Assembly (NCBI GenBank): GCA_024280935.1
Contig: JAJRPE010000115.1
Span: 12,256 to 76,255 of the forward strand
Length of the DNA: 64,000 nt
Direction of reading: 5' to 3'
DNA from: Candidatus Hydrogenedentota bacterium
GTDB taxonomy: Bacteria; Hydrogenedentota; Hydrogenedentia; Hydrogenedentales; JAEUWI01
Position numbers and translations under genes: made by a program. Shown here one piece after another: positions 3,952 to 63,989 of the stretch (position 1 is its first letter; each line of letters begins with the position of its first letter). Under the pieces are notes generated by a model. That model was not told the origin of the DNA, did no database searches, and was given only the letters and a program-made list of their open reading frames with translations.

Positions 3952-5393
3952 AGGTCAGCCATCCCGCGTGCTGCGAGTCCGACGGCAACCATGAATTGCG
4001 CCGGCTGTTCGAGCATTCTGCCCATTGACATATCGTCGGCCACGAATAGCGCACTATTGGTTGGATCCGCCACGTCGACCGACTCAACCCCCAACTCATC
4101 AAGCAGGGTGGTACATACAAGGGAGGAATGGGCGATGCCTCCGCTTATCACCAGCCGATCCACAGGGCGCTCGTAAAGTTGGTGTTCATAATAATCGAAG
4201 GAACGACGAATTTCAGTAACCATCTTCGCAAGTGACACAAGGACCGTCTCCCTTATGTCCGGCTCAACTTCCTCCGCCATCCCCATTGGCGAAGCCGCTT
4301 GGAGACCGGAAAAGGAATCATCAAAGCCACCCCCGAGTTCATCGTCAAGAGGATCCAACAGGGAACTGCCTCCAGGCGCGCTGATAGGTGCTACCGGTGC
4401 CGCTTCTCCAAAAGGATCGTCACCAAAATCGGTAATAGAATCGGGTGTCTGTATACCTTCACCAGCATCGCTGAAGGTATCATCAAGATTCTCCACGATG
4501 GGAACCGCCGATGCCTCCACCTCTTCCATCTCTTCCATCAGGGCATTCGCACCGAGAGCCTCGGCACCAGCCTCCTCCTTGAACAAAAACTCTTGCAGAC
4601 GGCTTTCCGCCTCCTCGTACTCGCAACGAAGATCTTTCGCGATAGCGTGAATCAACTCACGGGAACCCCAGTTTACATCGCGAATGAAGTTTGATATACC
4701 ATCTTTCACAAAGTGTATGCTTGCCGAAGTCAAACCAATATTGACCAGGGCCACCGTTTCGCCGACACGCAAAAAGTCGCATGCCTCGGCAGCATCCGCC
4801 AAAGCAAGGGAGTCTATCCCGAGGATGGCATACTCAAGATCAGCCGCATCCATAATCTGAACGCGGGAATCGATAATCTCGTGTTTGGCCGCCACCAGCA
4901 GCACTTTCAACTGTCGCTGACCACCCTCTTCCACCTCATCAAGCAACGCCCAATCCAACGACACTTCAGCCAAGTCGTAGGGAATGTTCTGACCTGCCTC
5001 GCGACTCACAATTTCGCCGAGCTGATCACGGCTTGACTCGGCATAACGCGGGTAGCGAATTACTGCTGTCTGACCAGGCAAGGCCCCCACAATCTGGCTG
5101 GAATTCAGGTTCATATTGACCAACGCCTCGCTCACGGCAGCAGCGTGGGCGACAACCGGATCGGCGTTCACCTGATTTCGGTCCACCTCAGCATAGCCCA
5201 CCTCGTCAATACAGAGGCGACCACCCCGACGAGACATCTGAACCGCCTTGACAGCGTAGGTGCCGATATCGAGGCCTATCGATTTCTTTGCCTTAAAGAA
5301 CAGCAATAAACCCAAGCTCCTCTGTGAACCGCGCAAGACGATGCCAGGTCGGGCCACAATGCTCCAAGGCAAACGCTCTTCGCGAAACGCCAA
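3948..5393 (-). CDS. pilM: PilM-like actin-fold ATPase with a roughly 100-aa acidic low-complexity insertion. The annotated start is probably over-extended; the real start is likely nearer KKSIGLDIGTYAVKAV
   Basis: IGLDIGTYAVKAVQMS is the PilM/FtsA phosphate-1 motif. An acidic run (EEAGAEALGANALMEEMEEVEA...DPLDDELGGGFDDSF) is inserted in mid-protein. It is the first gene of the pil operon. Confidence 0.75.
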   Translation of the reverse strand: MAFREERLPWSIVARPGIVLRGSQRSLGLLLFFKAKKSIGLDIGTYAVKAVQMSRRGGRLCIDEVGYAEVDRNQVNADPVVAHAAAVSEALVNMNLNSSQIVGALPGQTAVIRYPRYAESSRDQLGEIVSREAGQNIPYDLAEVSLDWALLDEVEEGGQRQLKVLLVAAKHEIIDSRVQIMDAADLEYAILGIDSLALADAAEACDFLRVGETVALVNIGLTSASIHFVKDGISNFIRDVNWGSRELIHAIAKDLRCEYEEAESRLQEFLFKEEAGAEALGANALMEEMEEVEASAVPIVENLDDTFSDAGEGIQTPDSITDFGDDPFGEAAPVAPISAPGGSSLLDPLDDELGGGFDDSFSGLQAASPMGMAEEVEPDIRETVLVSLAKMVTEIRRSFDYYEHQLYERPVDRLVISGGIAHSSLVCTTLLDELGVESVDVADPTNSALFVADDMSMGRMLEQPAQFMVAVGLAARGMADL

Positions 5394-6180
5394 CGACGGG
5401 CCGAACCCTTGTTTTGCGCAGTATTACCACAACACCTGTTCCGAACGTTGCGACCACGCCATTTTGTGGTCATCACCAATTATTCACCAAACTTGGTCTG
5501 GTATTGACCAAGTCGGCCAGCGGCACGGGCTGTACCAAGCCATCTGCGTCATCTACTGTAGTAATCAGTTGACTAACGCGATCACCAGGACCAGCCTGCA
5601 TATTTAGTTTACGCACTCCTCGCTAGTTTGTCAAGTATTTACTTTATAAAAAAAATGGGCCGCCATCTCTGGCGACCCATCCACCATCTATATATTCAAT
5701 TCCCCGCTCATGCCGTCCGACAATGAGCGCATAATACCTTTCCCTCAAAAGGGGGGCGTCTTCACGGCAGCCTTTCGCCTTCCACTCAAAAACTGGAGGC
5801 TTGGCGTTGGCTACTCAAATATCAAACACCCAGTACATGCGAAAGGTGCGGCGCACAGTTGCCATAACGCACACAGCAGGGAAAAATGGTGTCAAATCTT
5901 GGTTTTTCAGCAAACACTGGAAATGATTGTCACGCTTCACGCCGTCTTGCTACACGTGGCGCAACGGGATCATTATAGCACGTGATCGCCCCGAAGCGGC
6001 AAGAGGGGTCGCTCTTTCTGGGATTGAAATGGGGAAAGCGGAATTAAATTTGCTCGTCGAGGTGTTTCCTACAACGTTGAGCGGTCTCTGTCGCACGCTC
6101 CACGGTTGGATTGGTGCGAGCAGCTCGACTACAATGAGGCACGAGTGCAAAAGCACCGTCATCCAGGAGTTTGATTCCCC

Positions 6181-17612: not shown

Positions 17613-17640
17613 TTTCTTCTCCGCTAGCGTGGACGTTGCC

Positions 17641-17745
17641 CACAACCCAGAACCGTCATCCCCGCGAACGCGGGGATCCAGTGCTGTTACGATGTGCACC
17701 TGCCGCGTTCTGGATTCCCACGTTCGTGGGAATGACATCGGCTTA
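17641..17745 (+). repeat. Composite REP/MITE-like element, family 1, inserted between ribD and ribE
   Basis: gtcatccccgcgaacgcggggatccagtg ... ctgccgcgttctggattcccacgttcgtgggaatgacat. Inverse-orientation copies at 38876-38975 and 42748-42850 share the tail ttgggttgtgggcaa. Confidence 0.8.
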
Positions 17746-17787
17746 TTGTCTTTTTTGTTGCGGTTCTCCCAGAGTAATACACTAATC

Positions 17788-18870
17788 TCAGGGACGAACA
17801 TACGCCTCTATCAATAAATCCTGGCTGATGGGCGTGGCCGTCATATGTTCCAGTTGAATAGCCTCGTCAACGGTGTCAAAGCCCGACCCTTCGACCGGAG
17901 ACACGGCATCGCGCCCGCCAAGTATCTTGGGAGCCACGAAGAACATTACCTTGTCCACGATGCCCGCCTTAAAGGCCGCTGCGTGGGTCGTGCCGCCGCC
18001 CTCGATCAGGAGTGACGTGATGCCCCGCTCGCCCAACGCGTCCATCAACGCGGCCAGATCTACACCGCCATCATGTTGGGGCACCCGAATCACTTCATCG
18101 GCTTCGGGATAGTCCCGGTCCGTACACACCGCAATCCACGTTTCGGCCTCGCTGTTGAGGTGAAAAACACGACGATTACTGTCGAGGTAGTCGCCCGCGT
18201 CCAGAATGATACGAGTCGGGTCCTTGGAAAACCCGTTCGTGAGGCGGCAGGTCAAGCTGGGGTCATCCAGCATCACCGTCCGGCTGCCTACGAGGATGCC
18301 GTCCACGTGGGACCGAATCTCGTGAACCCTGGTGCGGGACGCTTCGCAGGTAATCCATTTCGAGTGGCCCGTATGGGATGCTATTTTTCCGTCCAACGTC
18401 ATGCCACACTTCGCGATAACAAAAGGGCGACCGGTGGTGATGAATTTTATAAATACTTCATTAAGTCGCCGGGCTTCTGCCTCGCAGCACCCCACATCCA
18501 CCTGAATACCGGCATCGCGAAGCTTGGCGACGCTCTTCCCCGCCGTCAAGGGGTTGGGATCTTCCATGGCCACCACAACGCGGGCAATGTCCTCCTGAAG
18601 AAGAAAATCGACGCAGGGCGGGGTCTTTCCGTGGTGCGCGCACGGCTCCAGCGTGACGTAGACGGTCAACTGTTTGCGCTGGGGCTGGGCAATATCCTGG
18701 AAGGCGTTGACCTCCGCGTGGGGTCCCCCAGCGTACTCGTGATAGCCCTCCCCCACCATCTGATTGTCGGACACCACCACACAACCGACCATGGGATTGG
18801 GCGAGGTACGGCCCAGTCCCTTCGCAGCCAGTGCGAGGGCCTGCTCCATATAGGTTGTGTCCGAGGGCAT
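17788..18870 (-). CDS. ribD: Bifunctional riboflavin biosynthesis deaminase/reductase
   Basis: CMP/dCMP deaminase motif PHAEVNAF...LEPCAHHGKTPPC, plus a C-terminal RibD reductase domain. The start is probably MPSDTTYMEQ; the track ORF extends to 18990. Confidence 0.9.
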   Translation of the reverse strand: MPSDTTYMEQALALAAKGLGRTSPNPMVGCVVVSDNQMVGEGYHEYAGGPHAEVNAFQDIAQPQRKQLTVYVTLEPCAHHGKTPPCVDFLLQEDIARVVVAMEDPNPLTAGKSVAKLRDAGIQVDVGCCEAEARRLNEVFIKFITTGRPFVIAKCGMTLDGKIASHTGHSKWITCEASRTRVHEIRSHVDGILVGSRTVMLDDPSLTCRLTNGFSKDPTRIILDAGDYLDSNRRVFHLNSEAETWIAVCTDRDYPEADEVIRVPQHDGGVDLAALMDALGERGITSLLIEGGGTTHAAAFKAGIVDKVMFFVAPKILGGRDAVSPVEGSGFDTVDEAIQLEHMTATPISQDLLIEAYVRP

Positions 18871-19211
18871 AAAAAAAACCTGCTGGTAGAGACCAACAGG
18901 GCGAACGCATCGGAAACGTGATGCACGGTAAGCGTACACGGGTTGCGCACGCACGGAGACCACCGGCCAACGCACACACACCTCCTGCAATACGTTTTCA
19001 CGTACTCGGACGTATCCCAGCCTTCTCCCATCCGGACTTTAACCGTCGGCCCCGGAATTACACCGGTGTCTGCGCCGAAGCGCTCGCGGGCTTTCACCGC
19101 CGGTCAGGAATTGCACCATGCCCTGAAGGTCAGGTATGTTTCAGTTCTGGTTGTATTCTACCAAGCGGTAGGTTGTTCGGTCAATAAATTGGGCTTTGGG
19201 TTGTTGAAAAG

Positions 19212-20082
19212 ATGGGCCATATGGGTCGTATGATTTTGCGAAACCAAGCCTCCATCGTTGCGCCGACACACCCTCTCTGAAACGCAGCCCTGAGTCCCCC
19301 CTTGTCGCACACAAGGGCATACGACTCATAAGCCCCATACGCCCCATCGCCCTCCTACCCCCACTGATTCCTGTTCCGTTGCTGTAATCGCGCCCTGGTC
19401 ATCCGCTCTCTGATTCCGCCCTCGTTCATGAAGTCACGCTCAAGCTGTCGTATCTGTTGGTCAAGGAGGTAGTTGGCCTGATGTATGAGACAGATCGCGA
19501 TATTGGCAATGACTTCGGACGAGCGGGTCTCTACAAATTCGCGGTAGGTTTCGTAATTTATCGGGGCGGTCTTGCCAAGCTTCCGAACATAAAGCGCTTC
19601 CTTCGATTCCTTAGGCCAAGTCCGCAACTCTCGGACACGCAAAAAGTCGCGGTAGTCAGCCAGCAACTCTTCTTGGCTGGCCCGTGCAACATTGCGTAAT
19701 TTCACCTCCATTTCCTTGGAGGTGCCGGAAGCCTTGGTGCCCTCAAGGATGTTCTGCTTACCGGACCCGCGCCGCCTGTACCATTTGATCAACGGTGCGA
19801 TCTCCGCGACGCAAAAACCTATCGCAGAACCGGAACGTGATGTCGTAGATTACCTCGGTCTTTTGATAGGAGAGAAGTTCTTCGTAGTTTCCGTGAGGTG
19901 GAATAAAACCAGCGTGATCGGCCATTGCAAGTTGACCTTATGGGTCGTATGGGGCTTATGAGTCGTATACAAAACAGAATCACCCGTTGCTATCGACAAT
20001 AACCCTACACAGCGGACTAACTCAAAATCAAAAGCATATTCCAAAAAAACATAAGACCCATTCGCCCCATATGACCCATCTT
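19212..20082. mobile_element. About 870-bp element with nested inverted repeats (family 7) enclosing a 145-aa ORF
   Basis: Outer IR is 19212-19236 against 20052-20082. Inner IR is 19316-19350 (gggcatacgactcataagccccatacgcccc) against 19937-19972 (cttatgggtcgtatggggcttatgagtcgtatac). A solo copy lies at 31554-31590. Confidence 0.55.
19355..19792 (-). CDS. Hypothetical 145-aa protein carried inside the IR-flanked element. It has a weak resemblance to four-helix-bundle (23S-IVS/Avd-like) proteins (SEVIANIAICLIHQANYLLDQQI)
   Basis: Intact ORF. Lys/Arg-rich N-terminus and a predicted helical C-terminus. No firm family assignment. Confidence 0.35.
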   Translation of the reverse strand: MIKWYRRRGSGKQNILEGTKASGTSKEMEVKLRNVARASQEELLADYRDFLRVRELRTWPKESKEALYVRKLGKTAPINYETYREFVETRSSEVIANIAICLIHQANYLLDQQIRQLERDFMNEGGIRERMTRARLQQRNRNQWG

Positions 20083-20084
20083 AC

Positions 20085-20819
20085 CTACACCGACACGTCA
20101 AGCCGCCCTACACCCGCAGCGCCACCATTTCCACTCCCCCCACCACGCTGAGGCGTGTATTCTGAAAAATCGCGTCGTGCAATCGGCGGGGACACTTGGA
20201 TACCCCCTGCCCCGCTCGCAGAGGTCGCCTCCACCGCGCCACCGTCCTCCTCGTCACCCGCAGCTTTTTCCTGCTGGGCCCCCTGGAGCTGACGACGCGC
20301 TTCCGACTCCAGTTTGCTCGCCTGGTTGGCGACGGAGCGGTCTTGTCCCGACGGTTCGGCAGGGGCCAAGGCAGCGCGGCGAATCACCTGCGCCTTCTGG
20401 ATGGTGGCCTCCGGGCTGGAAGCAGGACTTACGTCGATGCTGACCTCGCCGCCCGAAGCATACTGGCGCCCGTCGGGCCCGGTGGTGAACTCGAACTGGG
20501 GTCCGCCGTTGGCATAGCGCCCGGCGGCGGCCACGTGGGCCTGTTCGTGGCGACGCACTTCGGCATCGCGACGCTTGAGATCCACGACCTCTTTTTTAGC
20601 GTCTTCCGAGAGTTCTTCGGAAGCCCCTGCGATACCCGACGACCCTTCCGAGTCCTCGCTGCGCACCGGGTTTACAGAAGAAAACTCCCCCAAGCCCGAC
20701 TTCTTTCCCAATGCGCCCGCAAGACCGTCTCCCGAAGTCTCAGCAGCACGAGTCGGTGGCATCACCAGATAGGGTGAGAATCCACCGCCTATGGATCCTA
20801 TTCCGACCATTAAACTCAA
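20085..20819 (-). CDS. SprA-related family protein (HEQAH motif, putative metallo-peptidase-like)
   Basis: DLKRRDAEVRRHEQAHVAAAGRYANGGPQFEFTTGPDGRQYASGGEVSIDVSP, then TIQKAQVIRRAALAPAEPSGQD, which is the characteristic SprA-related core. Gly-rich N-terminus. Confidence 0.45.
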   Translation of the reverse strand: MSLMVGIGSIGGGFSPYLVMPPTRAAETSGDGLAGALGKKSGLGEFSSVNPVRSEDSEGSSGIAGASEELSEDAKKEVVDLKRRDAEVRRHEQAHVAAAGRYANGGPQFEFTTGPDGRQYASGGEVSIDVSPASSPEATIQKAQVIRRAALAPAEPSGQDRSVANQASKLESEARRQLQGAQQEKAAGDEEDGGAVEATSASGAGGIQVSPPIARRDFSEYTPQRGGGSGNGGAAGVGRLDVSV

Positions 20820-26080: not shown

Positions 26081-26160
<80 letters not shown>

Positions 26161-29160: not shown

Positions 29161-29692
29161 GGTGAAGCTCCCGAGTTTGAAGGTCGTTCCTTATCCATTC
29201 ACAGGCCGCAACTTTCAGGGTCACTGGAACACTGCCATCAGAATAGCGATACGTTTTCATCGGACCGCTGCGTTGCAAAATGCACGTGTTTATGGTTGTA
29301 TATAAAAGATGTGAGATAATGCAAACGAGTACGATATGAGAAAAAAGGTTCTTCCGGTTCAAGGGTACGGTGTAGTTCAGAGCGACTTTCTTTGACTGTG
29401 TTTTTTCCTCGTCGTTGAGCGCCGAAGGTGCGTTTTATATCAGCCTGGGGCAACGCCCCAGGTCTCAAATCAGACAGAATTCAGGGCTGAAGGCCCGGCC
29501 CATAATCCAGCGGAAAATGGGCCTCTTGATTGGTATGAAACGGGCTTTCAGCCCTGTGGAATAGCTACATCCAGAAACCTGGGGCGTTGCCCCAGGCTGG
29601 TATGAACCCGGACCTTCGGCCCTGTAAAGCAACAAATACAAATAACATTGAACCGGATGAACCAAAAAAAAGCCGTCGGGTGCCACGGCCAA

Positions 29693-29800
29693 GGGGATTG
29701 GGCTTTCCAGCCCGACATAACGCGCACGGTGGGTGTCGAAAACGTACGTCGTGTTTGTGGTGATACATTGATTGTCCAAGACGGTGTATGGTGTGCAAGC
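29693..29800 (+). repeat. Family 2 MITE, left half only, abutting a family 3 MITE (nested or adjacent insertion)
   Basis: ggggattgggctttccagcccgacataacgcgc...gtcgaaaacg...acattgattgtccaag matches the left arms of the elements at 39672-39869, 61722-61920 and 63190-63392. Confidence 0.6.
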
Positions 29801-29810
29801 GTTCAGGGGC

Positions 29811-29950
29811 CGCTACGGGTGCCACGAACAAGGGGCGATAGCCCTTGTCCGTGCTTGGAAAGCATATCCACAGACAAGAAGCGAGTTTCCGGTCGAACTC
29901 TCATGGTCCGCACGGGCAAGCCCCACGGGGCTTGTCCGTGGCACCCGGAG
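29811..29950 (+). repeat. Family 3 MITE (about 140 bp; TIR gctacgggtgccacgRacaagggg / ccccttgtccgtggcacccgg)
   Basis: Other copies at 31748-31890 and 54931-55068. Confidence 0.75.
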
Positions 29951-30517
29951 ATTCCTTTTTAACCGGGAAGGATGTTGGAATTGGGTTGAGGCTGGGACTG
30001 CACCTCATCCAGGTAGCCTTGCCCAAACAAAGGCCACCGACGGGTGCCAAGCCCAATGCAGCACAACCCGTTGTCGGTGTGCGGGAGGGGTGTCAAATAG
30101 TTGTTACCCGTGACTATACGGTGCTAAAAAAGGGCGCTTGCCGACACCTTCCGCCCCTGCCCGCGCCGGGAGAAGCCGCTGTATAAGGGCTATCCTGTAG
30201 CGTGGCGACTCTGGCTCGATTCTTGTACCATAATGTCAGCAGACGAGCCTCAGACATTTTGGTGCGGCCGGACAAGGAACGCTGAGCCTTGGGAGCGCAC
30301 AGCCCTGTTTCTCCAAGCGCACGAACCCTCGTACCTCGTGATCGTGCGGCACGTCCGACAGGATTGAGGCTTAACCAGCGCCTGCCAATTTTCAACTATA
30401 CGTCATTCGCACAGATATGATAGGAGTCCCAAAAAACGACACTGGATCCCCGTGTTCGCGAGCCGCGCCAACGGAAGCTAAGCCCGCGCCAATCAGCGAG
30501 TTAAGCCTGCCTGGGGT

Positions 30518-31553: not shown

Positions 31554-31590
31554 CAATGAGTCGTATGGGGCTTATGGGTCGTATGAAAAC
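31554..31590 (+). repeat. Solo family 7 repeat (caatgagtcgtatggggcttatgggtcgtatg)
   Basis: Matches the inner inverted repeat of the 19212-20082 element. Confidence 0.6.
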
Positions 31591-31747: not shown

Positions 31748-31890
31748 TCCTCTCATCATAAAACAACGCTACGGGTGCCACGGGTAGGCCCGCCAGGGCT
31801 TACCCGTGTAGAACCGCCGGGGAGGCCCCTGAAGCTGGATAGTTTGCTCTTGGAATTTACACGGGTAAGCCCTGAGAGGCCTACCCGTGG
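31748..31890 (+). repeat. Family 3 MITE copy (variant internal sequence)
   Basis: cgctacgggtgccacgggtaggcc...ggcctacccgtggcacccgacg forms terminal inverted repeats. Confidence 0.7.
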
Positions 31891-32000
31891 CACCCGACGT
31901 GGATCTCTACAAAAAAGTGCAAAACCCAATTCCACCGGGAACAGGGTGTCTGAAACTGAGGCAGCACGAGCAAAGCCACCCCGTACAGTCCCAGCATCCC

Positions 32001-36493: not shown

Positions 36494-36995
36494 AATCAGT
36501 AACCACCGGCAGAGCCGGGGGTATGAGGAGGGCCCCTAAAAGGGGCCGATTCGTCAAACTCAGGTACGAAGCCAAAGCAGTTAGTCCCGTAGGGACGACA
36601 TATCGTAGCCCAGCGGTGAAGCGAGGTACGAGCGGAACCCTGGGTAGACCGGTGCGCAAAGGGCTGAACTCCGAAGGAGTGGCATAAAAAATCAGGACAC
36701 ATTCCCAACACCTCTATGCCACCCCTTCGGGGTTAAACATCTATTGCATTCGAGCTATCCCAGGGTTCGCTTCACTCACGCCTAGGCTACGATATGTCGT
36801 CCCTACGGGACTAAAAGAACATGGCACACACCGCCCAGTGTATGAATGCCAACAACTATCGCCGGAACGGCAGAGCCTGATGAATTCTCACCGGCAGAGC
36901 CGGTGGATTAACTATGATTTAGAATGATGAATGTAGAATTGGAACCTCTTGCCGCAATTCACTATTCGCCATTCTAAATTCACTATTCACTATTC
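36494..36995 (+). repeat. Family 6 composite repeat region (begins atcagtaaccaccggcagagccggKgg; contains a long internal inverted repeat at 36575-36640 against 36750-36815 and a gaatagtgaatt microrepeat)
   Basis: Paralogous copy at 38517-38870. The gaatagtgaatt microrepeat recurs at 51420-51470. Confidence 0.65.
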
Positions 36996-37544
36996 TCAAT
37001 TCTCCTCCCCCTCCAGCTCTTCGATTAAATCCGAGGCATCGGCCTTGGACTTCGTGCGGGCGATTTGGGCACCCGTGGCGCCGAGCTTCTGGAGCAACTC
37101 AATTTGCATCCGAGTTGGGTTGAGGTGCATGGTCTCAATCAGCGCTGAGGCATCTGCTTGGCTGATGACCTTTTCGATACGGGCGGGCGGCGCACCGAGG
37201 CGCGCCAGGTGAGCCAGTTGTTTCTCCGTAGGCGGCGCTTGCTTGCGGTGCTCTGCCTTGAGGACATCGATACGGTCCGAGGCGGTGTCTTTGTCCAAGC
37301 CGAGGAGCTGGGACTCTTTGGCCCCCAAACGGCGCAAATACTCCAATTGGGCTTCGGAAGCGGGTTCGTCGGATTTTGCGGCGGGCATGTCTTCGACCAG
37401 ACTCGCGGCCTGGGGCGCGGGGTCATTGGGCGAACCGATAAGGGCAATCTTGGTGCCACATTTATTACAGCTTCCCCGTTGACCCAGATATTTTGGGGCA
37501 ATAGGGAGCACCTGTTTGCACGTTGGACATATAAATTGGAGCAT
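36996..37544 (-). CDS. MJ0042-type zinc-ribbon protein with three roughly 35-aa helical repeats (paralog A)
   Basis: The internal ATG at 37544 gives MLQFICPTCKQVLPI...CNKCGTKIALIG. Repeats: SEAQLEYLRRLGAKESQLLGL..., TEKQLAHLARLGAPPARIEKV..., TRMQIELLQKLGATGAQIART.... Confidence 0.5.
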   Translation of the reverse strand: MLQFICPTCKQVLPIAPKYLGQRGSCNKCGTKIALIGSPNDPAPQAASLVEDMPAAKSDEPASEAQLEYLRRLGAKESQLLGLDKDTASDRIDVLKAEHRKQAPPTEKQLAHLARLGAPPARIEKVISQADASALIETMHLNPTRMQIELLQKLGATGAQIARTKSKADASDLIEELEGEEN

Positions 37545-37590
37545 GTTGTTTTGTTGTCTCCGAGGGGGTTGCCCCACCCGAGCCTCTTTG

Positions 37591-38451
37591 CTAACTATAG
37601 TACTTCGGCTCAAGGGATTTCAGATAGGCCAATCCATCACGCAGGAGTTGGTCGCTCGATTCCGCGAGAGAGCGCCACATGCACGTGGCCGCGGCCATGG
37701 CCGGTGAAACGCTCTCGAAGGATTCCATCCCAACGATGCCCTGATAATTCGCCTCGCCAAGGGCCTTGTAGATGCCATCCCAATCCACGACACCGGTCCC
37801 AGGCGTTCCTCGGTGGCTTTCGCTCAGGTGAAAATGGCAAAGATGGGGAATGGCCTTCTTCGTCGGCGCGTAGAAATCACATTCCTCAATATTCATGTGG
37901 TAGGCGTCGAGGTGTACCCGCACATTGGGTTCGTCGATGCGCTCCATCAGGGCTAAGGCCTGGTCCGTCGTGTTGACGAGAAAGGTCTCGTAACGATTGA
38001 TGGCCTCGATCCCCAGCGTGACGCCATGATCCTGGGCATAGCGGGCCGCTTCCTTCATCACCGACGCGGCGCGTTCCCAATACGCCTCGCCGGGCCTTCC
38101 CGTAATCTTTCGTCCGATGGCGGAATAGGTCACGCCCGTAAAGACCGAGCCGCCCATATCGACCGTCGCCTTGATACACTGCTTGAGATAGTCCAAGCCC
38201 GCCGCACGCACGGCCTCGTCTTCTCCGGTGGGATCGGTGGTCTCGGAACAAGCCGTGGAGGTGCATAGCCCGATGCCCACCGCCCCGGCACGTTCCTTGA
38301 TGGCGGCAGCGTCCACCTTCTCGATCTCCATCAAGGGCACTTCGACAAGATCAAAGCCCAGGGCCTTCGCCTTGTCAATAATGTCGAGCGTGTCGTTGCT
38401 CCAACTGTTGGTCCACGCATAGGCATGCACCGCGTATTTCAATCCTGCCAT
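37591..38451 (-). CDS. Sugar phosphate isomerase/epimerase (xylose-isomerase-like TIM barrel)
   Basis: GFDLVEV...GIGLCTS...VDMGGSVFTG...LGIEAINRYETFLVNT...VHLDAYHMNIEE...VGMESF are AP_endonuc_2 / TIM-barrel signatures. Confidence 0.75.
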   Translation of the reverse strand: MAGLKYAVHAYAWTNSWSNDTLDIIDKAKALGFDLVEVPLMEIEKVDAAAIKERAGAVGIGLCTSTACSETTDPTGEDEAVRAAGLDYLKQCIKATVDMGGSVFTGVTYSAIGRKITGRPGEAYWERAASVMKEAARYAQDHGVTLGIEAINRYETFLVNTTDQALALMERIDEPNVRVHLDAYHMNIEECDFYAPTKKAIPHLCHFHLSESHRGTPGTGVVDWDGIYKALGEANYQGIVGMESFESVSPAMAAATCMWRSLAESSDQLLRDGLAYLKSLEPKYYS

Positions 38452-38870: not shown

Positions 38871-38875
38871 CGCAC

Positions 38876-38975
38876 CCACGTCATTCCCACGCACGTGGGA
38901 ATCCAGAACGCGGCAGATACATATCGTAACACCACTGGATCCCTGCGTTCGCGGGGATGACAATCTTGGGTTGTG
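38876..38975 (-). repeat. Family 1 composite REP/MITE (inverse orientation)
   Basis: cacgtcattcccacgcacgtgggaatccagaacgcggcag...caccactggatccctgcgttcgcggggatgac...ttgggttgtgggcaa. Confidence 0.8.
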
Positions 38976-38996
38976 GGCAAAACTCACCTTGGGGCA

Positions 38997-39563: not shown

Positions 39564-39671
39564 GAAAATGCTCGCTTGGTTTATCTTAGGTTATAGCGTA
39601 CTGTACCGCAGGACGGGGCGTAAAATAAAAATACCCAAAGCGCTCACGGCCCGCGCAGGGAGCCGCAGGCA

Positions 39672-39869
39672 AGGAGGTTGGGCACCCCTGCCCGACACAA
39701 GGTGCATGGCGAGTATCGAAAACGGATGTAGTATTCGAGGTGGCACGTTGATTGCTCAAGACAGTCTATCGTGCTATGCCATTCGAATCCGACGCGCCTA
39801 CTGGTGCCGATGGTCGACTTTATGCCCGACGCGCCCTTTGTGTCGGGCAGGGATGCCCAACCTCCTCGC
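39672..39869 (+). repeat. Family 2 MITE (about 200 bp; TIR gg(a/g)ggttgggcaYYcctgcccgacaYaa)
   Basis: caaggaggttgggcacccctgcccgacacaa ... tttgtgtcgggcagggatgcccaacctcctcg. Copies at 61722-61920 and 63190-63392, plus a half-copy at 29693. Confidence 0.75.
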
Positions 39870-39931
39870 TTGACGTGACCGCGATAGTCCCTATAGAGTG
39901 GTGGCACTTATTGTCCCAATCTTTGGCAGGT

Positions 39932-42706: not shown

Positions 42707-42747
42707 TGCTTCAATCTGGAAAAGCCGCTACAAAAGCAAGATAGGCC

Positions 42748-42850
42748 TACGTCATTCCCACGAAAGTGGGAATCCAGAACGCGGCAGGAGCACATCGAAA
42801 CACCACTGGATCCCCGCATTCGCGAGGATGACGGTCTTGTTGCGACCAGC
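42748..42850 (-). repeat. Family 1 composite REP/MITE (inverse orientation)
   Basis: acgtcattcccacgaaagtgggaatccagaacgcggcag...caccactggatccccgcattcgcgaggatgac. Confidence 0.8.
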
Positions 42851-46164: not shown

Positions 46165-46549
46165 GGGGACTGCCTCGCCCAAGGTCGCGTTACTTGGTGA
46201 AGTGATCTTCGTGGCGAACACGTTCACTGAGGTATGGGATTACCCCTTCAGCAGGCGGGGCTGTCCCCAGACAAATAGCGCCCACGTCTCTCGTTTTGAG
46301 ACAGCACGCCGGGGACTGCCTCGCCCAAGGTCGCAGCACGCAGGGGTAGTAAACTTCGGGGCCAGCAAATCCACCAAGGTATGCAACGCCCACTTCAAAA
46401 GGCGGGGCTGTCCCCAGACAAATAGCGCCCTCGTCTCTCGTTTGGGGACAGCACGCCTCCTGAAGAGCTATTTCCTACTTGAAAAATTACATGCTGGACC
46501 ACAACGCTCGCTTCACTACACAACGTGGGCGTGGGCGAGGCAGTCCCCT
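46165..46549. repeat. REP/BIME-like array on the 3' side of the RAYT (ggggactgcctcgcccaaggtcgc units alternating with ggcggggctgtccccaga...tggggacag hairpins)
   Basis: Two forward REPs at 46165 and 46311 and an inverted REP at 46535-46549 (gggcgaggcagtcccc). Confidence 0.8.
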
Positions 46550-47177
46550 ATTTCATCTTCCGCCGCACCATTTCCTGAAACGCGAGACTGCCCAGTGGAC
46601 GCCCCCGATTCGTGTGGGACCGTATCTTCTTCACCATACCGACATCTTCAATCGCCACCAACAGGGTCTCTCGCCATTCATCGATACTGAACTGGCTCTT
46701 CCAGCGCGTCAGATTGAGCAACGCGTCGTCCACGCCATCGATGCAGTGGGCACGGGCGCTCGACCACGGGTGGTCCCAAGCGAATTCTTCCATGCCCGCC
46801 CGGACGGGATTCAATTCAACATACGCGAGCGCATTCAACATATGCGGCTCATCCATGGGACAGGAGAAGAAACGGCTTTGCCACAGATGGCCCACATGCT
46901 CGTACCGCTTGCCCAGATAGGCCGTATAACTTTGATGCGTCCCACCGACGGCTTTCGCAAGGGATTCTTCCCGTGCGGGCACACCAACCAGATGAACGTG
47001 GTTCGTCATCAGGCAATAGCCAAGAATCCGCAAACCGTGCTCTCGCGTGTGTTCTTTCAACAGCGTAAGATACTTGCGCCGGTCTTGCTCGTCGAAGAAA
47101 ACCTGCTGCTTCTGATTGCCCCGTTGGGTGACATGATGCGCAACCCCCGGAAGCACTATGCGTGCTGTTCTAGGCAT
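46548..47177 (-). CDS. REP-associated tyrosine transposase (RAYT / TnpA_REP, IS200-like Y1 HUH)
   Basis: ATG at 47177. IVLPGVAHHVTQRGNQKQQVFFDEQDRRKYLTLLKEHTREHGLRILGYCLMTNHVHLVGVP...YVELNPVRAGM carries the HUH motif (HVH) and a catalytic Tyr. REP arrays flank it on both sides. Confidence 0.8.
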   Translation of the reverse strand: MPRTARIVLPGVAHHVTQRGNQKQQVFFDEQDRRKYLTLLKEHTREHGLRILGYCLMTNHVHLVGVPAREESLAKAVGGTHQSYTAYLGKRYEHVGHLWQSRFFSCPMDEPHMLNALAYVELNPVRAGMEEFAWDHPWSSARAHCIDGVDDALLNLTRWKSQFSIDEWRETLLVAIEDVGMVKKIRSHTNRGRPLGSLAFQEMVRRKMK

Positions 47178-47196
47178 GATGTCATGGTAGCATAAC

Positions 47197-47733
47197 GGGG
47201 ACTGCCTCGCCCAAGGTCGCGACGCGCAGGAAAATCCACTTCGTGACGGACAGATCTGCTGCGGTATACAATGAAAACCCCAAGCAAGGCGGGGCTGTCC
47301 CCAGATCAAATAGCACCCGCGTCTCTTGTTTGGGGACAGTACGCCGGGGACTGCCTCACCCAAAGCCGCGACGTGCAGGGTATCCACTTCCTAACGGACA
47401 GGTCTGCTATGGTATGGAACGGAACCCCAAACAGGCGGGCTGTCCCCAGATCAAATAGCACCCGCGTCTCTTGTTTGGGGACAGTACGCCGGGGACTGCC
47501 TCGCCCAAAGCCGCGACGTGCAGGGTATCCACTTCCTAACGGACAGGTCTGCTATGGTATGGAACGGAACCCCAAACAGGCGGGGCTGTCCCCAGATCAA
47601 ATAGCACCCGCGTCTCTTGTTTGGGGACAGCCCCGCCTTCTGAAAGACCATTTTCTACTCAAGGATATACATGCTGGCCACAACGCGCACGACACTTGGG
47701 CAACGTGGGCCTGGGCGAGGCAGTCCCCAGAAT
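47197..47733. repeat. REP array on the 5' side of the RAYT, including three tandem units of about 146 bp (47197-47640) and a terminal inverted REP
   Basis: The unit is ggggactgcctcRcccaaRgYcgcgacgtgcagggtatccacttcctaacggacaggtctgctatggtatggaacggaaccccaaacaggcggggctgtccccagatcaaatagcacccgcgtctcttgtttggggacagtacgcc, repeated three times. Confidence 0.85.
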
Positions 47734-51077: not shown

Positions 51078-51078
51078 G

Positions 51079-51420
51079 GGGACTGCCTCGCCCAAGGCCA
51101 CGTAGCTCAGGGGTATGGGCTACGTGGCCAGCAACACAGTTTCAGGTTGGGGGCTGCTCGGTCAACAGGCGGGGCTGTCCCCAGAACAAAAGGCGGCGGA
51201 AGGAATTGGGACAGCCCCGCCTATTGAAGTCCTCTCCATAGTTTTAGCGAGCTTGCTCGCCAAAACGCACACCTCCCTTCCACAACACAGGCTTGGGCGA
51301 GGCAGTCCCCGGGACTGCCTCGCCCAAGGCCACGTAGTTCAACAAGATAAGCTACGTGGCCAACGGCACCGTTTCAGGTTGGGGGCTGCTCGGTCAACAG
51401 GCGGGGCTGTCCCCAGAACA
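51079..51420. repeat. Third REP/BIME cluster of the RAYT-associated family, with a head-to-head REP pair at 51296-51330 and a gaatagtgaatt microrepeat at 51420-51470
   Basis: ggggactgcctcgcccaaggccacg appears twice. gggcgaggcagtccccgggactgcctcgccc is an inverted dimer. Confidence 0.8.
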
Positions 51421-51980
51421 CACGCAAATTGAATTGAGAATAGTGAATTTTGAATAGTGAATTGAATCAGCAGACTCGTGACCCCAAGCGCGCTGCTTCA
51501 GCAAGATAGGCTGCAAGGGAAAGTAGGACAGCCGTCTGTCACGACAGGCGAGATGCCTGTCCTACATTCTTGTACAAGCGCGCACCAATACAACAAGGCC
51601 AACTCCGCAACAGTGTGCTGTCTCCAGACGGTGTCCCAGAACACACCAGCAGGTGGCGCATGGGACGGACTCGCGCCCATGACATTGGGTCTCGAAACGG
51701 ATACGTCTTGGCTAGCCGGACACCGCAATCTGGGCAAAAACCGTAGATGCGCGTGCCCGTCCCGGTGGAGTTTTGGGAAGAGTCCTTTGTCAGACCGATG
51801 CCACACACCCTGTCCCATCGGGACATGCCCCCGCGTTATGGCGCGACCATAGTACACCCGGCACTGAATTCAATCCGCGCCACACATATTCGCCATCGCG
51901 TCGTCCTGCGGGGGTACGTCCCTGAGCGCTGTATTTCCATAAATGGCGGTCGATAAAGGAGGGAGACCTCTTCCCAGCTC

Positions 51981-54930: not shown

Positions 54931-55068
54931 CGCTACGGGTGCCACGGACAAGGGGCGACAGCCCTTGCCCGTGTTTGGAAAACATATTCAACAGACAAGA
55001 AGCAAGTTTTCGGTCGATCCCATGTTCCGCATGGGCAAGCCCCACAGGGCTTGTCCGTGGCACCCAGA
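54931..55068 (+). repeat. Family 3 MITE copy
   Basis: cgctacgggtgccacggacaaggggcgacagcccttgtccgtg...gggcttgtccgtggcacccagagg. Confidence 0.75.
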
Positions 55069-61707: not shown

Positions 61708-61721
61708 ACGACTTCGCTAAC

Positions 61722-61920
61722 AGGGGGTTGGGCATTCCTGCCCGACATAAAGCGCACGTCGAGTGTCGAAAACGCACGTATAGATCGTGGTAACACATTG
61801 GACATCCAGGCCAGGGCATCGTGCCTTCTTAATCAAGTCTTGGTTGATTGCATCTGCCGGTGTCGGGTTTTATGTCCGACGCGCCCTTTATGTCGGGCTG
61901 GAAAGCCCAACCCCCTTTCC
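61722..61920 (+). repeat. Family 2 MITE copy immediately 3' of the DUF1559 gene
   Basis: agggggttgggcattcctgcccgacataaagcgc ... gcgccctttatgtcgggctggaaagcccaaccccct. Confidence 0.8.
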
Positions 61921-61934
61921 ACCAAAAGCTCCCA

Positions 61935-62990
61935 TCAATTCAGTGCGCTTGATTGAGGCGGTCGCTGTGTATCGCCAATTGGCGCTTCCAGTGTACCCTC
62001 CACCGCATCGCGGAGGATCTGCCCTGCCTCGTTAAAGGGAAACGGTGTTCTCCCTCCCAAATATATCCCCTCCACATGTCCGTCCATGTAGAGTACGTTG
62101 GCCCGCCGCATGTGGGGAAAGATGGTCGATACATGGGGCACGGCTTCGTGGAGTACGACAATACTTTTCTCGGCAGTATACATTGCCGCCGGATTACAAA
62201 TTTCGCGCATAAGAAAACGTCCTACACCTTCACGAAGAGATGGAATCTCCGAGCCAAACGGAATCTTCAGGGCCTTTCCGCTGGGGTATTCCAAGTCCCA
62301 AGTCTGCATGGAGCGGTTGAAATCGCCGGATTTCATCTTCTCCGCCAAAGAGAGGGTGGCGAGTCTGAACCGCATGTTGTGAATGTGCGGCGTATACTCG
62401 TCGGTTACCCTTAGCGACCGCCCCCAACCGCGTTTCCGCATGTTCTCTGTCAGAACATCTTCCGGATCAGCATCTTCCGTCCGAGGGAACGGCCCAAATG
62501 TCAATTCAGACAGCGCCCAACCGTAGTAATAGTAGGGCTTGCCAAGCATCTCACACGGCTCAACGGTGCCATTATTGCTGTAGCCCTCGACCGCCTCCCA
62601 ACGAGGATTGGTCGTCTTCCCCTCATCCCAGACTTCGATAGCGGTCTTGCCGGGACCGTAGGATGGGCAGACAAAGAGGTCCAGATCCGTCAGGTATTCA
62701 GGGTAGACCTCCGCGAGGTCCATGGCCCCGCTCCAGGGCTGGATGTTGCCGTTGCAATCATCGAGTTTCGGCTTGGGAAAGCGCTGCCCCTTGGACTCCT
62801 CTGTGTACATGGACATGGCCTGCCCGATTTGCTTGAGTTTCGCCTGGCAGGGTAGCAGGTCTCTTGTCAACAACACACGGGGAATCTGGCTGACAGCAAT
62901 TAGCCCGAGCACCGCAAGCAATATCATTGCCACGATAAATTCTATTCGTGTAAGCGGTTTCCGAAGCGTTCTACCTTTTGGATTTGCCAT
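61935..62990 (-). CDS. Prepilin-type N-terminal domain + DUF1559 (H-X9-DG) protein, typical of Planctomycetota
   Basis: N-terminus KGRTLRKPLTRIEFIVAMILLAVLGLIAVS is pseudopilin-like. C-terminal NVLYMDGHVE is the H-X9-DG-type motif. Confidence 0.6.
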   Translation of the reverse strand: MANPKGRTLRKPLTRIEFIVAMILLAVLGLIAVSQIPRVLLTRDLLPCQAKLKQIGQAMSMYTEESKGQRFPKPKLDDCNGNIQPWSGAMDLAEVYPEYLTDLDLFVCPSYGPGKTAIEVWDEGKTTNPRWEAVEGYSNNGTVEPCEMLGKPYYYYGWALSELTFGPFPRTEDADPEDVLTENMRKRGWGRSLRVTDEYTPHIHNMRFRLATLSLAEKMKSGDFNRSMQTWDLEYPSGKALKIPFGSEIPSLREGVGRFLMREICNPAAMYTAEKSIVVLHEAVPHVSTIFPHMRRANVLYMDGHVEGIYLGGRTPFPFNEAGQILRDAVEGTLEAPIGDTQRPPQSSALN

Positions 62991-63189
62991 GTGGCTCCCT
63001 TCCAAATTGTCGCCTTCGCTACCGTTATCGACAGTATCACGTAAGCCTGAAAAGAAACCACTGCCAAGTTCGTGATGGCTTTCAGCGCCAAAAACTCAAG
63101 ACATTCGCCTACGGCAAGATCTGCGACCCAATGTGAAGCTACCGGAGCTGGTGGCGCCCTTCACGGCCCATGCTGGGCACTACGCACAA

Positions 63190-63392
63190 GGGGGTTGGGC
63201 ATTCCTGCCCGACATAGACGGCGCGGTGGGTGCCGGAAGCCCACGTAGTGTTCGTGTTAACACATTGGATGTCCAGGACAGGGCATAGCACTTTGTCGTT
63301 TGAATCCTACGTGACTACACGTGCCGGTGTCGGGTTCTATGTCCGACGCGCCCTTTATGTCGGGCTGGAAAGCCCAACCCCCTTTTCACCAA
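63190..63392 (+). repeat. Family 2 MITE copy immediately 5' of the DUF1559 gene, in the same orientation as the 61722 copy
   Basis: gggggttgggcattcctgcccgacatagacggcgc ... gcgccctttatgtcgggctggaaagcccaaccccc. Confidence 0.8.
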
Positions 63393-63401
63393 AAGCTCCC
63401 A

Positions 63402-63989
63402 TCAATTCAGCGAGCCGGATGGCGTCAATCGTTGGGAATCCTCTATTGGTGTCTTCGCAAACTGTTCCGAATCGTAGGGGAGTTGAACGCCCTGCCAAGT
63501 AGAGACGGGAATGCGCCACAGGGTGTATTCGGCGTGGTAGCGCATAGGCAGCCGACGGGGTATGGTCGCCACCAACGCCACGAGGGCCTCTTCCCCTTCC
63601 CAGGCAAAATCCACAATCTCTCCAGGGAGCGAGATGTAGACCGCTTCTCCCTTTCCCGGGTCAACGCCGCGAAGCAGCCCTGCTGGGTCCACCCAAGCAA
63701 CATAGCGGCCCGCCGGGCTGATCCGGGAGCGTGTCACGCGATAGTTTCGGTGCAGGAGCACTGTTCGTGTTTCCCCCTCCGTGGAAAGGGCTACCAAATC
63801 CCCGGCTTGCTCGAAATAAATCAATTCCCTGCGTCCGGCACGCCAGGCGAGCGCCCCTGCGGGAAACACCCGTTCTCGAATCAGCGATGTGCGTCGGCCA
63901 CCGTCCGCGCTAAGCACCAGACGACCACTGGAATTTGCGAAGGCCACATCGCCGCTGGCCGCGTCGATGGCCACGCAGGTTTCGTCCAC
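63402..63989 (-). CDS. Beta-propeller (TolB/PD40-like) protein; the gene may continue beyond the window end
   Basis: Repetitive beta-strand blades with RISPAGRYVAWVD-type PD40 motifs. Confidence 0.35.
   Translation of the reverse strand: MDETCVAIDAASGDVAFANSSGRLVLSADGGRRTSLIRERVFPAGALAWRAGRRELIYFEQAGDLVALSTEGETRTVLLHRNYRVTRSRISPAGRYVAWVDPAGLLRGVDPGKGEAVYISLPGEIVDFAWEGEEALVALVATIPRRLPMRYHAEYTLWRIPVSTWQGVQLPYDSEQFAKTPIEDSQRLTPSGSLN

Follow-up and report, generated by a model that had tools for sequence, protein, structure and literature searches.

What kind of element is the ~0.9-kb segment of inverted repeats and coding sequence that lies upstream of the rib genes in a 64,000-nt stretch of DNA from a Candidatus Hydrogenedentota bacterium (assembly GCA_024280935.1, contig JAJRPE010000115.1; hereafter the window)? 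The initial annotation, made from the letters alone, described it as an intact 145-aa open reading frame (ORF) in an 870-bp element, with two nested inverted-repeat pairs around it. Our results identify it as a widespread gene cassette, of which the window holds a copy with slight damage (one frameshift); in this cassette a four-helix-bundle (4HB) suffix gene is accompanied by arrays of 9-nt boxes.

The 145-aa ORF exists, but it is the 3' part of a frameshifted gene whose true N terminus is encoded by a separate 55-aa ORF. Alignment to the DNA of the intact orthologue (locus L001) leaves a one-column gap, i.e. a 1-nt insertion in the window copy, and no ORF of full length (186–195 aa) remains. 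The insertion falls within a conserved motif (QMVQAARSGKQNIxEG) that is invariant in 30 homologues. The repaired 189-aa protein has more than 8000 homologues (best identity 86%; lengths 186–195 aa). Since strong purifying selection otherwise acts on the gene, the frameshift has either arisen very recently or is a sequencing error. Programmed frameshifting was rejected: there is a 0-frame stop two codons past the shift site, no slippery motif is present and the homologues are all single-frame. The subfamily comprises 420 clusters (50% identity) at E ≤ 1e-30, and many cluster representatives match only residues ~48–186 or ~6–120 of the 4HB protein. This suggests that broken or truncated copies like that of the window are common, in counts that include truncation at contig ends.

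The faint resemblance to four-helix bundles of the Avd and intervening-sequence (IVS) type that had first been noticed turns out to be strong. TIGR04258 (‘four helix bundle suffix’) matches the 145-aa fragment with a score of 86 bits (cut-off 40; E 1.2e-24). The repaired protein scores below the curated cut-offs of TIGR02436 (22.1 vs 24 bits) and PF05635 (19.4 vs 33.8 bits), and its close homologues carry a precomputed PF05635 match. An AlphaFold2 model of the orthologue is all-helical (predicted local-distance difference test, pLDDT, 81); its top Foldseek match is 2gsc_B (Xcc0516; probability 1.00, template-modelling (TM) score 0.72 on the target), followed by 2rld (BT_0352) and 8ub7_B (the Avd chain of a diversity-generating retroelement (DGR) ribonucleoprotein), with weak E-values of 0.065 and above. 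The predicted fold is like the Xcc0516/BT_0352 four-helix bundle, and the matches to 2gsc, 2rld and 8ub7_B bear out the IVS/Avd resemblance. Protein Data Bank (PDB) sequence searches (single protein and profile) returned chance coiled-coil matches only, no transposase in Pfam or NCBIfam matched the 4HB protein, and PADLOC and PHROGs searches gave no match at E ≤ 1. The protein is thus neither a recognizable transposase nor an obvious toxin, as the initial annotation held, and no family of transposases, toxins, defence or phage proteins matched it; its own family, though common, is not a housekeeping one.

The inverted repeats are equally real. The inner arms (19319–19347 and 19940–19968, 29 nt) are 97% complementary and the outer arms (19202–19232 and 20059–20089, 31 nt) 81%; outer arm 19212–19232 also pairs with the adjoining inner arm 19318–19338 (86%), and inner arm 19940–19968 with the adjoining outer arm 20051–20079 (83%). 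A feature absent from the initial annotation is the tandem structure: each of the four arms, and a solo copy elsewhere in the window, is a head-to-tail run of about three 9-nt units (ATGRGNCNT; e.g. ATGGGTCGT, ATGGGGCTT, ATGAGTCGT and similar units). Matches are far beyond chance. With up to three mismatches the 29-nt arm has three matches in the window (at 19319, 19940 and 31556) vs 0.00 expected, and a degenerate two-unit pattern (ATGRGNCNTATGRGNCNT) has nine vs 0.06 expected, all of them in the four arms and the solo copy and nowhere else in the window. On the coding strand the order is ATG-type array, 81-nt spacer, CAT-type array, 14 nt and ORF, then 7 nt, ATG-type array, 86-nt spacer and CAT-type array. 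The solo copy was confirmed at 31556–31584; the repeat therefore does recur away from the element, as had been proposed, but only once in the window. This solo array has no partner arm and no 4HB gene remnant nearby, and a relative (L176; L13 identity 85%) has only ~85 nt of intergenic DNA at the same position, with the array absent. The window's own L13 protein places the organism in Hydrogenedentota. The reading frame of the 4HB gene also stays open for 58 codons past its TAG stop (19181–19354, minus strand), through both downstream arms (...EGDGAYGAYESY...IIRPIWPIF...), probably by chance.

We then compared 83 loci that carry the gene. Eighty further loci, at 65–76% protein identity, belong to Acidobacteriota, Planctomycetota, Verrucomicrobiota, Chloroflexota, Nitrospirota, Chlorobiota, Desulfobacterota, Zetaproteobacteria, Bacteroidota, Sumerlaeota, Hydrogenedentota, Synergistota and one genome of the Candidate Phyla Radiation (CPR). 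Period-9 arrays directly adjoin the 4HB gene in most of these 80 loci and in more than 10 bacterial phyla. In a sample of ~1.2 Mb altogether, 105 strict arrays lie no further than 400 nt from one of the 83 genes vs 7 in the other ~750 kb, and 383 kb of unrelated RibD loci contain none. A motif-blind search with Tandem Repeats Finder (TRF) gave 87 arrays of period 9 in 166 flanks vs 5 in 125 control segments, with 19 more of period 18 in the flanks, and the motif-blind unit logo (A-T-R-G-G-W-C-n-t) holds 10.3 bits vs 4.5 bits for shuffled units. The conserved core is ATRGGWC, within a 9-nt box consensus of ATRGGWCnn. The geometry is fixed as well: on the start-codon side the ATG-type array is distal and the CAT-type array proximal, whereas on the other side an ATG-type array begins at the stop codon with a CAT-type array beyond it. 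The layout across the 83 loci is therefore better described as two convergent, hairpin-forming pairs, one per ORF end, than as the nested pairs first annotated, although in the window all four arms can nonetheless pair in nested fashion. In short, the arrays associate with the gene family-wide and at fixed positions.

Within this frame the arrays vary. Arrays hold 2 to 14 units, and the units of any one locus are homogenised. One protein clade, found in Verrucomicrobiota, Planctomycetota, Chloroflexota, Nitrospirota, Synergistota, Sumerlaeota and CPR, has ATGGGAAnn units, another has ATAGGWCCT units, and one metagenome-assembled genome (MAG) carries two copies, one per unit type, that are 85% identical. 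Unit type evidently tracks protein clade and not host phylum. In a Chlorobium MAG (L053) a 123-nt hairpin module (array, 60-nt spacer, array) is directly repeated, at −163 upstream and +19 downstream, and large solo arrays occur in L046 (517–631, 12 units) and L072 (8285–8356, 8 units), 1.7–5 kb from the 4HB gene and with no second 4HB gene beside them. A role as a CsrA/GGA sponge or Shine–Dalgarno mimic was rejected because the window units ATGGGTCGT and ATGGGGCTT lack GGA/GGAG. Our literature searches (motif, family names and link to restriction–modification (R-M) systems), whose coverage left out most subscription journals, found no description of the arrays.

The comparison with L001 bears on the age of the cassette and on whether its arrays matter. 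In the window the cassette sits between the stop of the SprA-related gene (20085) and a rib promoter-like site (19184–19155), followed by a flavin mononucleotide (FMN) riboswitch and ribD-ribE-ribBA. L001 has matching synteny (SprA-related gene, 4HB gene, FMN riboswitch, ribD, ribE and ribBA) and the same arms; its RibD is 83% and its 4HB protein 86% identical to that of the window. Between the two loci the 4HB gene has a nonsynonymous divergence (pN) of 0.11 and a synonymous divergence (pS) of 0.84, i.e. its synonymous sites are saturated, and RibD has 0.10 and 0.71, respectively. The arms are 86–90% identical while the spacers are unalignable. Protein and arms are thus both under purifying selection, and the cassette is evidently old at this site; it would have entered between the SprA-related gene and the rib-operon promoter before the window and L001 lineages split. 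The same figures make it highly improbable that the arrays are a functionless, slippage-prone satellite that hitch-hikes with the gene. Such a satellite would account for the variable unit number and the homogenisation within a locus, both typical of slippage, and for the loci that have no arrays. However, it would not be expected to retain its arms while adjoining spacers and synonymous sites are randomised, or to conserve core motif, period and position relative to start and stop codons across phyla.

The window locus itself bears few marks of mobility. The cassette body is single-copy in the 64 kb, with no second 4HB gene; no short target-site duplication (TSD), one of the checks that the initial annotation had proposed, is present at its borders; there is no duplicated target segment of the kind found at the hsdM and thiC sites described below; and there is no recombinase in or beside the cassette and no integrase nearby. 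Rfam searches gave no match on the element at permissive thresholds and no rRNA in the window. No promoter match of its own was found in the cassette, so it would probably be transcribed by read-through from the upstream gene. A classical non-autonomous transposon or miniature inverted-repeat transposable element (MITE), with terminal inverted repeats (TIRs) mobilised by a genomic transposase, is the least probable of the explanations we considered, and a very remote one. Inverted repeats do bracket the ORF, one solo arm lies elsewhere in the window and the genome is rich in other dispersed repeats. Yet no transposase family was matched, only the arms recur, each end has both orientations in place of a single TIR, and the gene-plus-array unit occurs in more than 10 phyla with its ORF under strong purifying selection. 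No clean empty counterpart of the window site was found among 80 metagenomic RibD relatives, all ≤64% identical; they have neither 4HB gene nor arrays, but they also lack the SprA-related neighbour. An exact-sequence look-up of the window RibD gave no record.

Hallmarks of insertion are, by contrast, evident at other sites. At least 10 of the 83 loci sit between hsdM and hsdS of type I R-M operons. The HsdM proteins of these loci are 80–87% identical across five phyla, which indicates that the R-M operon travels as a whole, cassette included; a cassette also accompanies a second type of HsdM, unrelated to the first (27% identity). On a Methylomagnum plasmid that encodes an HsdM 82.5% identical to these, hsdM and hsdS overlap in ATGA without a cassette, which identifies an empty site. 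At filled hsdM and thiC sites the cassette is flanked by 20–125-nt direct duplicates of the 3' end of the upstream gene (Table 1), the two copies being ~85% identical to each other. No empty site was found for the thiC context, where relatives of the downstream flavoprotein (75–81% identity) have other neighbours. In 53 of 73 loci the upstream gene runs in the same direction as the 4HB gene; the median distance from the upstream stop codon to the first array is 23 nt. The proposal of an inserted element thus gains support from these other loci, with an empty hsdM/hsdS site and filled sites next to duplicated target 3' ends, but not in the form of a classical transposon or MITE in the window.

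In the R-M clade the start ATG of the 4HB ORF overlaps the hsdM stop, and translation runs through the upstream arrays, which encode an N-terminal (N/D-G-K)n...(S-H-x)n tail; the 9-nt period keeps the reading frame. In L052, ~30–100 nt past the 4HB stop, the duplicated hsdM 3' end forms a mini-ORF (MAALDAESAEVLGNIKALL, then a stop), as also in L063 and L044; the stop of this mini-ORF and the hsdS start share an ATGA, an overlap that apparently keeps hsdS translationally coupled. L063 also carries a second, divergent 4HB paralogue (4823–5461; 40% identity), seemingly between hsdS and hsdR and without nonamer arrays.

Table 1. Features of the cassette and its surroundings in the window, and target duplicates at other loci
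Feature	Position or length	Strand	Remarks
SprA-related gene (PF12118)	20085..20819	-	Context; upstream, co-oriented
Upstream distal arm	20050..20080	-	Three 9-nt units, coding-strand ATG orientation; 5 nt past SprA-related gene stop
Upstream spacer between two arms	19969..20049	-	81 nt; not conserved in L001
Upstream proximal arm	19940..19968	-	Three units, coding-strand CAT orientation; 14 nt separate arm from start codon
Whole 4HB suffix gene	19355..19925	-	189 aa after removing one base; split by frameshift in the window
55-aa ORF, N-terminal fragment	19758..19925	-	MADHAGFIPPHGNY...QMVQAAR, frame lost thereafter
145-aa ORF, C-terminal fragment	19355..19792	-	TTG start; native frame only from ~residue 11
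Frameshift site	19766..19768	-	One extra G in coding-strand run GCGCGGGTCC (plus-strand CCC)
Downstream proximal arm	19319..19347	-	Three units, ATG orientation; 7 nt separate arm from TAG stop
Downstream spacer between two arms	19233..19318	-	86 nt; unalignable with L001
Downstream distal arm	19212..19232	-	Two to three units, CAT orientation
Promoter-like site (TTGACC, 18 nt, TAGAAT)	19155..19184	-	For FMN riboswitch and ribD; just outside cassette
FMN riboswitch	19016..19134	-	Precedes ribD (17788-18990)
Solo array	31556..31584	+	Three units, just past rpsI terminator
L052 duplicate	66 nt		hsdM end through first hsdS codons
L063 duplicate	49 nt		hsdM context
L044 duplicate	~35 nt		hsdM context
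L050 duplicate	125 nt		thiC context; orphan thiC 3' fragment keeps own stop codon
L066 duplicate	54 nt		thiC context

These insertion signatures raise the possibility that the arrays are the ends of a mobile cassette. Either the 4HB protein or a recombinase provided in trans would recognise these hairpin-forming ends and insert the circular cassette at a conserved gene's 3' end, duplicating the target. The empty and filled hsdM/hsdS sites and the long duplications of target 3' ends at two unrelated targets are consistent with this, as are very tight cassette borders and near-identity between phyla (e.g. 94% between a CPR copy and a Pirellulaceae copy). The layout of hairpin, small ORF and hairpin, with no need for TIR or TSD, also recalls IS200/IS605. 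Several observations nevertheless make such mobility unlikely: (i) no recombinase lies in or next to the cassette, and the 4HB protein, being all-alpha, resembles none of the HUH, DDE, tyrosine and serine recombinases; (ii) there are no multi-copy bursts, and the two copies in one MAG are only 85% identical; (iii) the cassette stays at one site while synonymous sites saturate, and transfer in the R-M clade involves the entire operon; (iv) viral contigs and plasmids almost never carry the cassette (one weak match and one 46% match); and (v) the window locus has no duplication. A more specific version, which we likewise regard as doubtful, is a new type of mobile cassette in which an S23p/Avd-type protein would be the end-recognition factor for 9-nt boxes in hairpin or cruciform ends; such a cassette would integrate at conserved gene 3' ends, probably as a circle and with duplication of the target, and would be the source of the ORF-bearing IVSs of 23S rRNA.

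Do the arrays act as DNA or as RNA? In a purely RNA-level, IVS-like element the arms would form transcript stems that are cut by RNase III or mask the start, so that the ORF is excised or insulated, and no specific recognition by a protein would be needed. Several observations are in line with this: homologous ORFs in 23S rRNA IVSs lie between inverted repeats cleaved by RNase III, the arrays abut start and stop codons, and in the R-M clade a hairpin comes right after the start codon overlapping the hsdM stop, an arrangement in keeping with translational coupling. In addition, in the minimum-free-energy fold of the window transcript (z = −3.45) the two outer arms pair with each other, as do the two inner arms, and one compensatory change (T:A to C:G) separates the inner arms of the window from those of L001. 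If stems of the sense transcript were selected, however, an excess of G.U pairs and greater stability of the sense strand would be expected, and neither was seen. Mismatches in 42 arm pairs comprise 32 G.T vs 46 A.C (and 103 others), and among 17 array regions the sense fold is the stronger in 8 and the antisense fold in 9. The two tests lend no support to action at the RNA level. Pairing alone would also leave the conserved 7-nt core and the fixed 9-nt period across phyla unexplained, and many loci have one-sided arrays. We therefore consider a purely RNA-level role unlikely. The arms of one locus do share their variable positions, which, together with the compensatory change, argues that their complementarity is maintained by some means, be it pairing selection, gene conversion or inverted duplication.

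Taken together, the cassette is most likely insertion-derived and IVS-like, and its arrays probably act in cis as sites that a sequence-specific factor recognises. The likeliest candidate for this factor is the cassette's own 4HB protein, since no other component accompanies the arrays in every case; the protein would then bind the borders of its own gene, and the possible purposes include autoregulation, delimitation of the cassette within a host operon, and integration or excision. Borders of this kind would have a counterpart in rRNA IVSs, where stems flank the S23p ORFs. We hold the arrays to be candidate cis sites read by the cassette's own oligomeric protein as our leading explanation, but a tentative one, which to us falls somewhat short of an even chance. 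Behind it we rank RNA stems, the ends of a mobile cassette, a neutral satellite and a classical MITE, in this order; own-protein cis sites and mobile-cassette ends are compatible with each other.

Several points weigh against the arrays being read by the cassette's own protein. Many loci have arrays on one side only, 14–28 of the 83 loci (depending on the criteria used) have none, and more distant paralogues (32–40% identity) lack them. Simple co-inheritance could account for the way unit type varies with protein clade, and the variable positions shared within a locus need pairing selection, gene conversion or slippage besides recognition of the core. The upstream arrays in the R-M clade may have a protein-level role, since they are translated, and the 4HB protein of the window may be inactive, since its gene is frameshifted.

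How, then, does the cassette relate to known systems? The closest is the ORF-bearing IVS of 23S rRNA (PF05635; Coxiella burnetii, Leptospira and Xanthomonas). In Coxiella burnetii an S23p ORF lies between inverted repeats cleaved by RNase III, with tandem heptamers before its start codon (PMC4990558). PF05635 genes have also been noted inside cas loci (PMC3936711) and in CPR rRNA insertions (bioRxiv 10.1101/2024.02.27.582315), in both cases without mention of flanking arrays. The cassette shares with the 23S rRNA IVS the protein fold family, one small ORF of the S23p family bracketed by inverted repeats, short tandem repeats beside the start codon (heptamers in Coxiella) and a sporadic, horizontally transferred distribution. 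It differs in that (i) it lies outside the rRNA gene, in intergenic or intra-operon mRNA contexts, and in the window not in a 23S rRNA helix but between the SprA-related gene and the FMN riboswitch/ribD; (ii) its arms are conserved 9-nt box arrays, not unique sequence; (iii) it has two hairpin modules, one per ORF end; and (iv) its protein bears the TIGR04258 suffix and is far more conserved. We file the element as an IVS-like cassette outside rRNA that is defined by its nonamer arrays.

Other systems are further removed. The DGR protein Avd, a basic pentamer that binds nucleic acid together with a reverse transcriptase, shares the four-helix-bundle fold (8ub7_B is among the top fold matches), but the 4HB protein has an extra suffix domain and the nonamer arrays have no DGR counterpart. 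Neither a reverse transcriptase nor a template/variable repeat pair lies beside the gene, whose neighbours are the SprA-related gene, ribD, ribE and ribBA; the only repeats in the region are the nonamer arms. Elements of the IS200/IS605 family are similar in size (~0.7–0.9 kb), in having one small ORF and no classical TIR/TSD pairs, and in hairpin-forming sequence at both ends, one beside the translation start. By contrast, the cassette ORF encodes an all-alpha bundle, not an HUH (Y1) transposase, copy number is low and the ends are periodic 9-nt arrays. As with integrative elements that use gene 3' ends, the hsdM and thiC cassettes are flanked by a direct duplicate of the upstream 3' end, and the target gene stays intact while an orphan 3' fragment is left; unlike them, the cassette has no integrase, measures only ~0.7–0.9 kb, has duplicates that are only ~85% identical and shows none at the window locus. 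Its setting, alone among housekeeping genes and without an integrase close by, argues against an integron gene cassette, and its units (9 nt, head to tail, with no spacers) are not those of a CRISPR array.

The window holds further repeats and RNAs. A separate dispersed hairpin family (CGGGTGCCACGGGTAGGCCC...; 39-nt arms, 92% complementary) occurs at 31772–31896, where it shares an expanded intergenic region with the solo nonamer array, and at 29911–29959 and 55030–55066. A dispersed repeat of ~105 nt lies at 17636–17755, 38875–38980 and 42732–42839 (88–89% identical); the first copy, inverted relative to the other two, is inside the rib operon between ribD and ribE. Tandem units of 145–147 nt, each bounded by GGGGACTGCCTCGCCCAAGG-type inverted ends, form clusters at 46165–47728 and 51078–51420; several copies are 92–100% identical, and they overlap ORFs without a family match. 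A family of palindromic elements (29691–29793, 39666–39872, 61719–61982 and 63188–63449; 38–51-nt arms, 80–90% complementary) includes a 261-nt segment repeated 1467 nt apart. An inverted pair of AT-rich arrays with a 7-nt period (ATTCACT / ATTCGCC / ATTCTAA...), which recall the Coxiella heptamers beside the S23p ORF, occupies 36955–37002 and 51430–51464; the first is at the 3' end of a 205-aa ORF (36996–37613, minus strand) without a family match. Rfam and ARAGORN also identify a 6S RNA (5697–5885, minus strand), an Acido-Lenti-1 small RNA (29418–29462, minus strand) and a tRNA-Pro(GGG) (26081–26159, plus strand).

For the annotation of the window, these results replace an intact 145-aa ORF with one frameshifted 4HB suffix gene. 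More generally, the arrays explain the spurious small ORFs and ‘inverted-repeat elements’ that genome scans flag around 4HB genes. Proteins of the S23p/Avd type are abundant (e.g. in rRNA intervening sequences, cas loci, R-M operons and DGRs), and a position-fixed array of 9-nt boxes that travels with the gene is a concrete candidate ligand for them and defines a cassette. The role of the IVS proteins thereby becomes testable by binding, processing and excision assays. If the arrays should prove to be the ends of a mobile cassette, this would give a function to the long-orphan S23p-type protein family.

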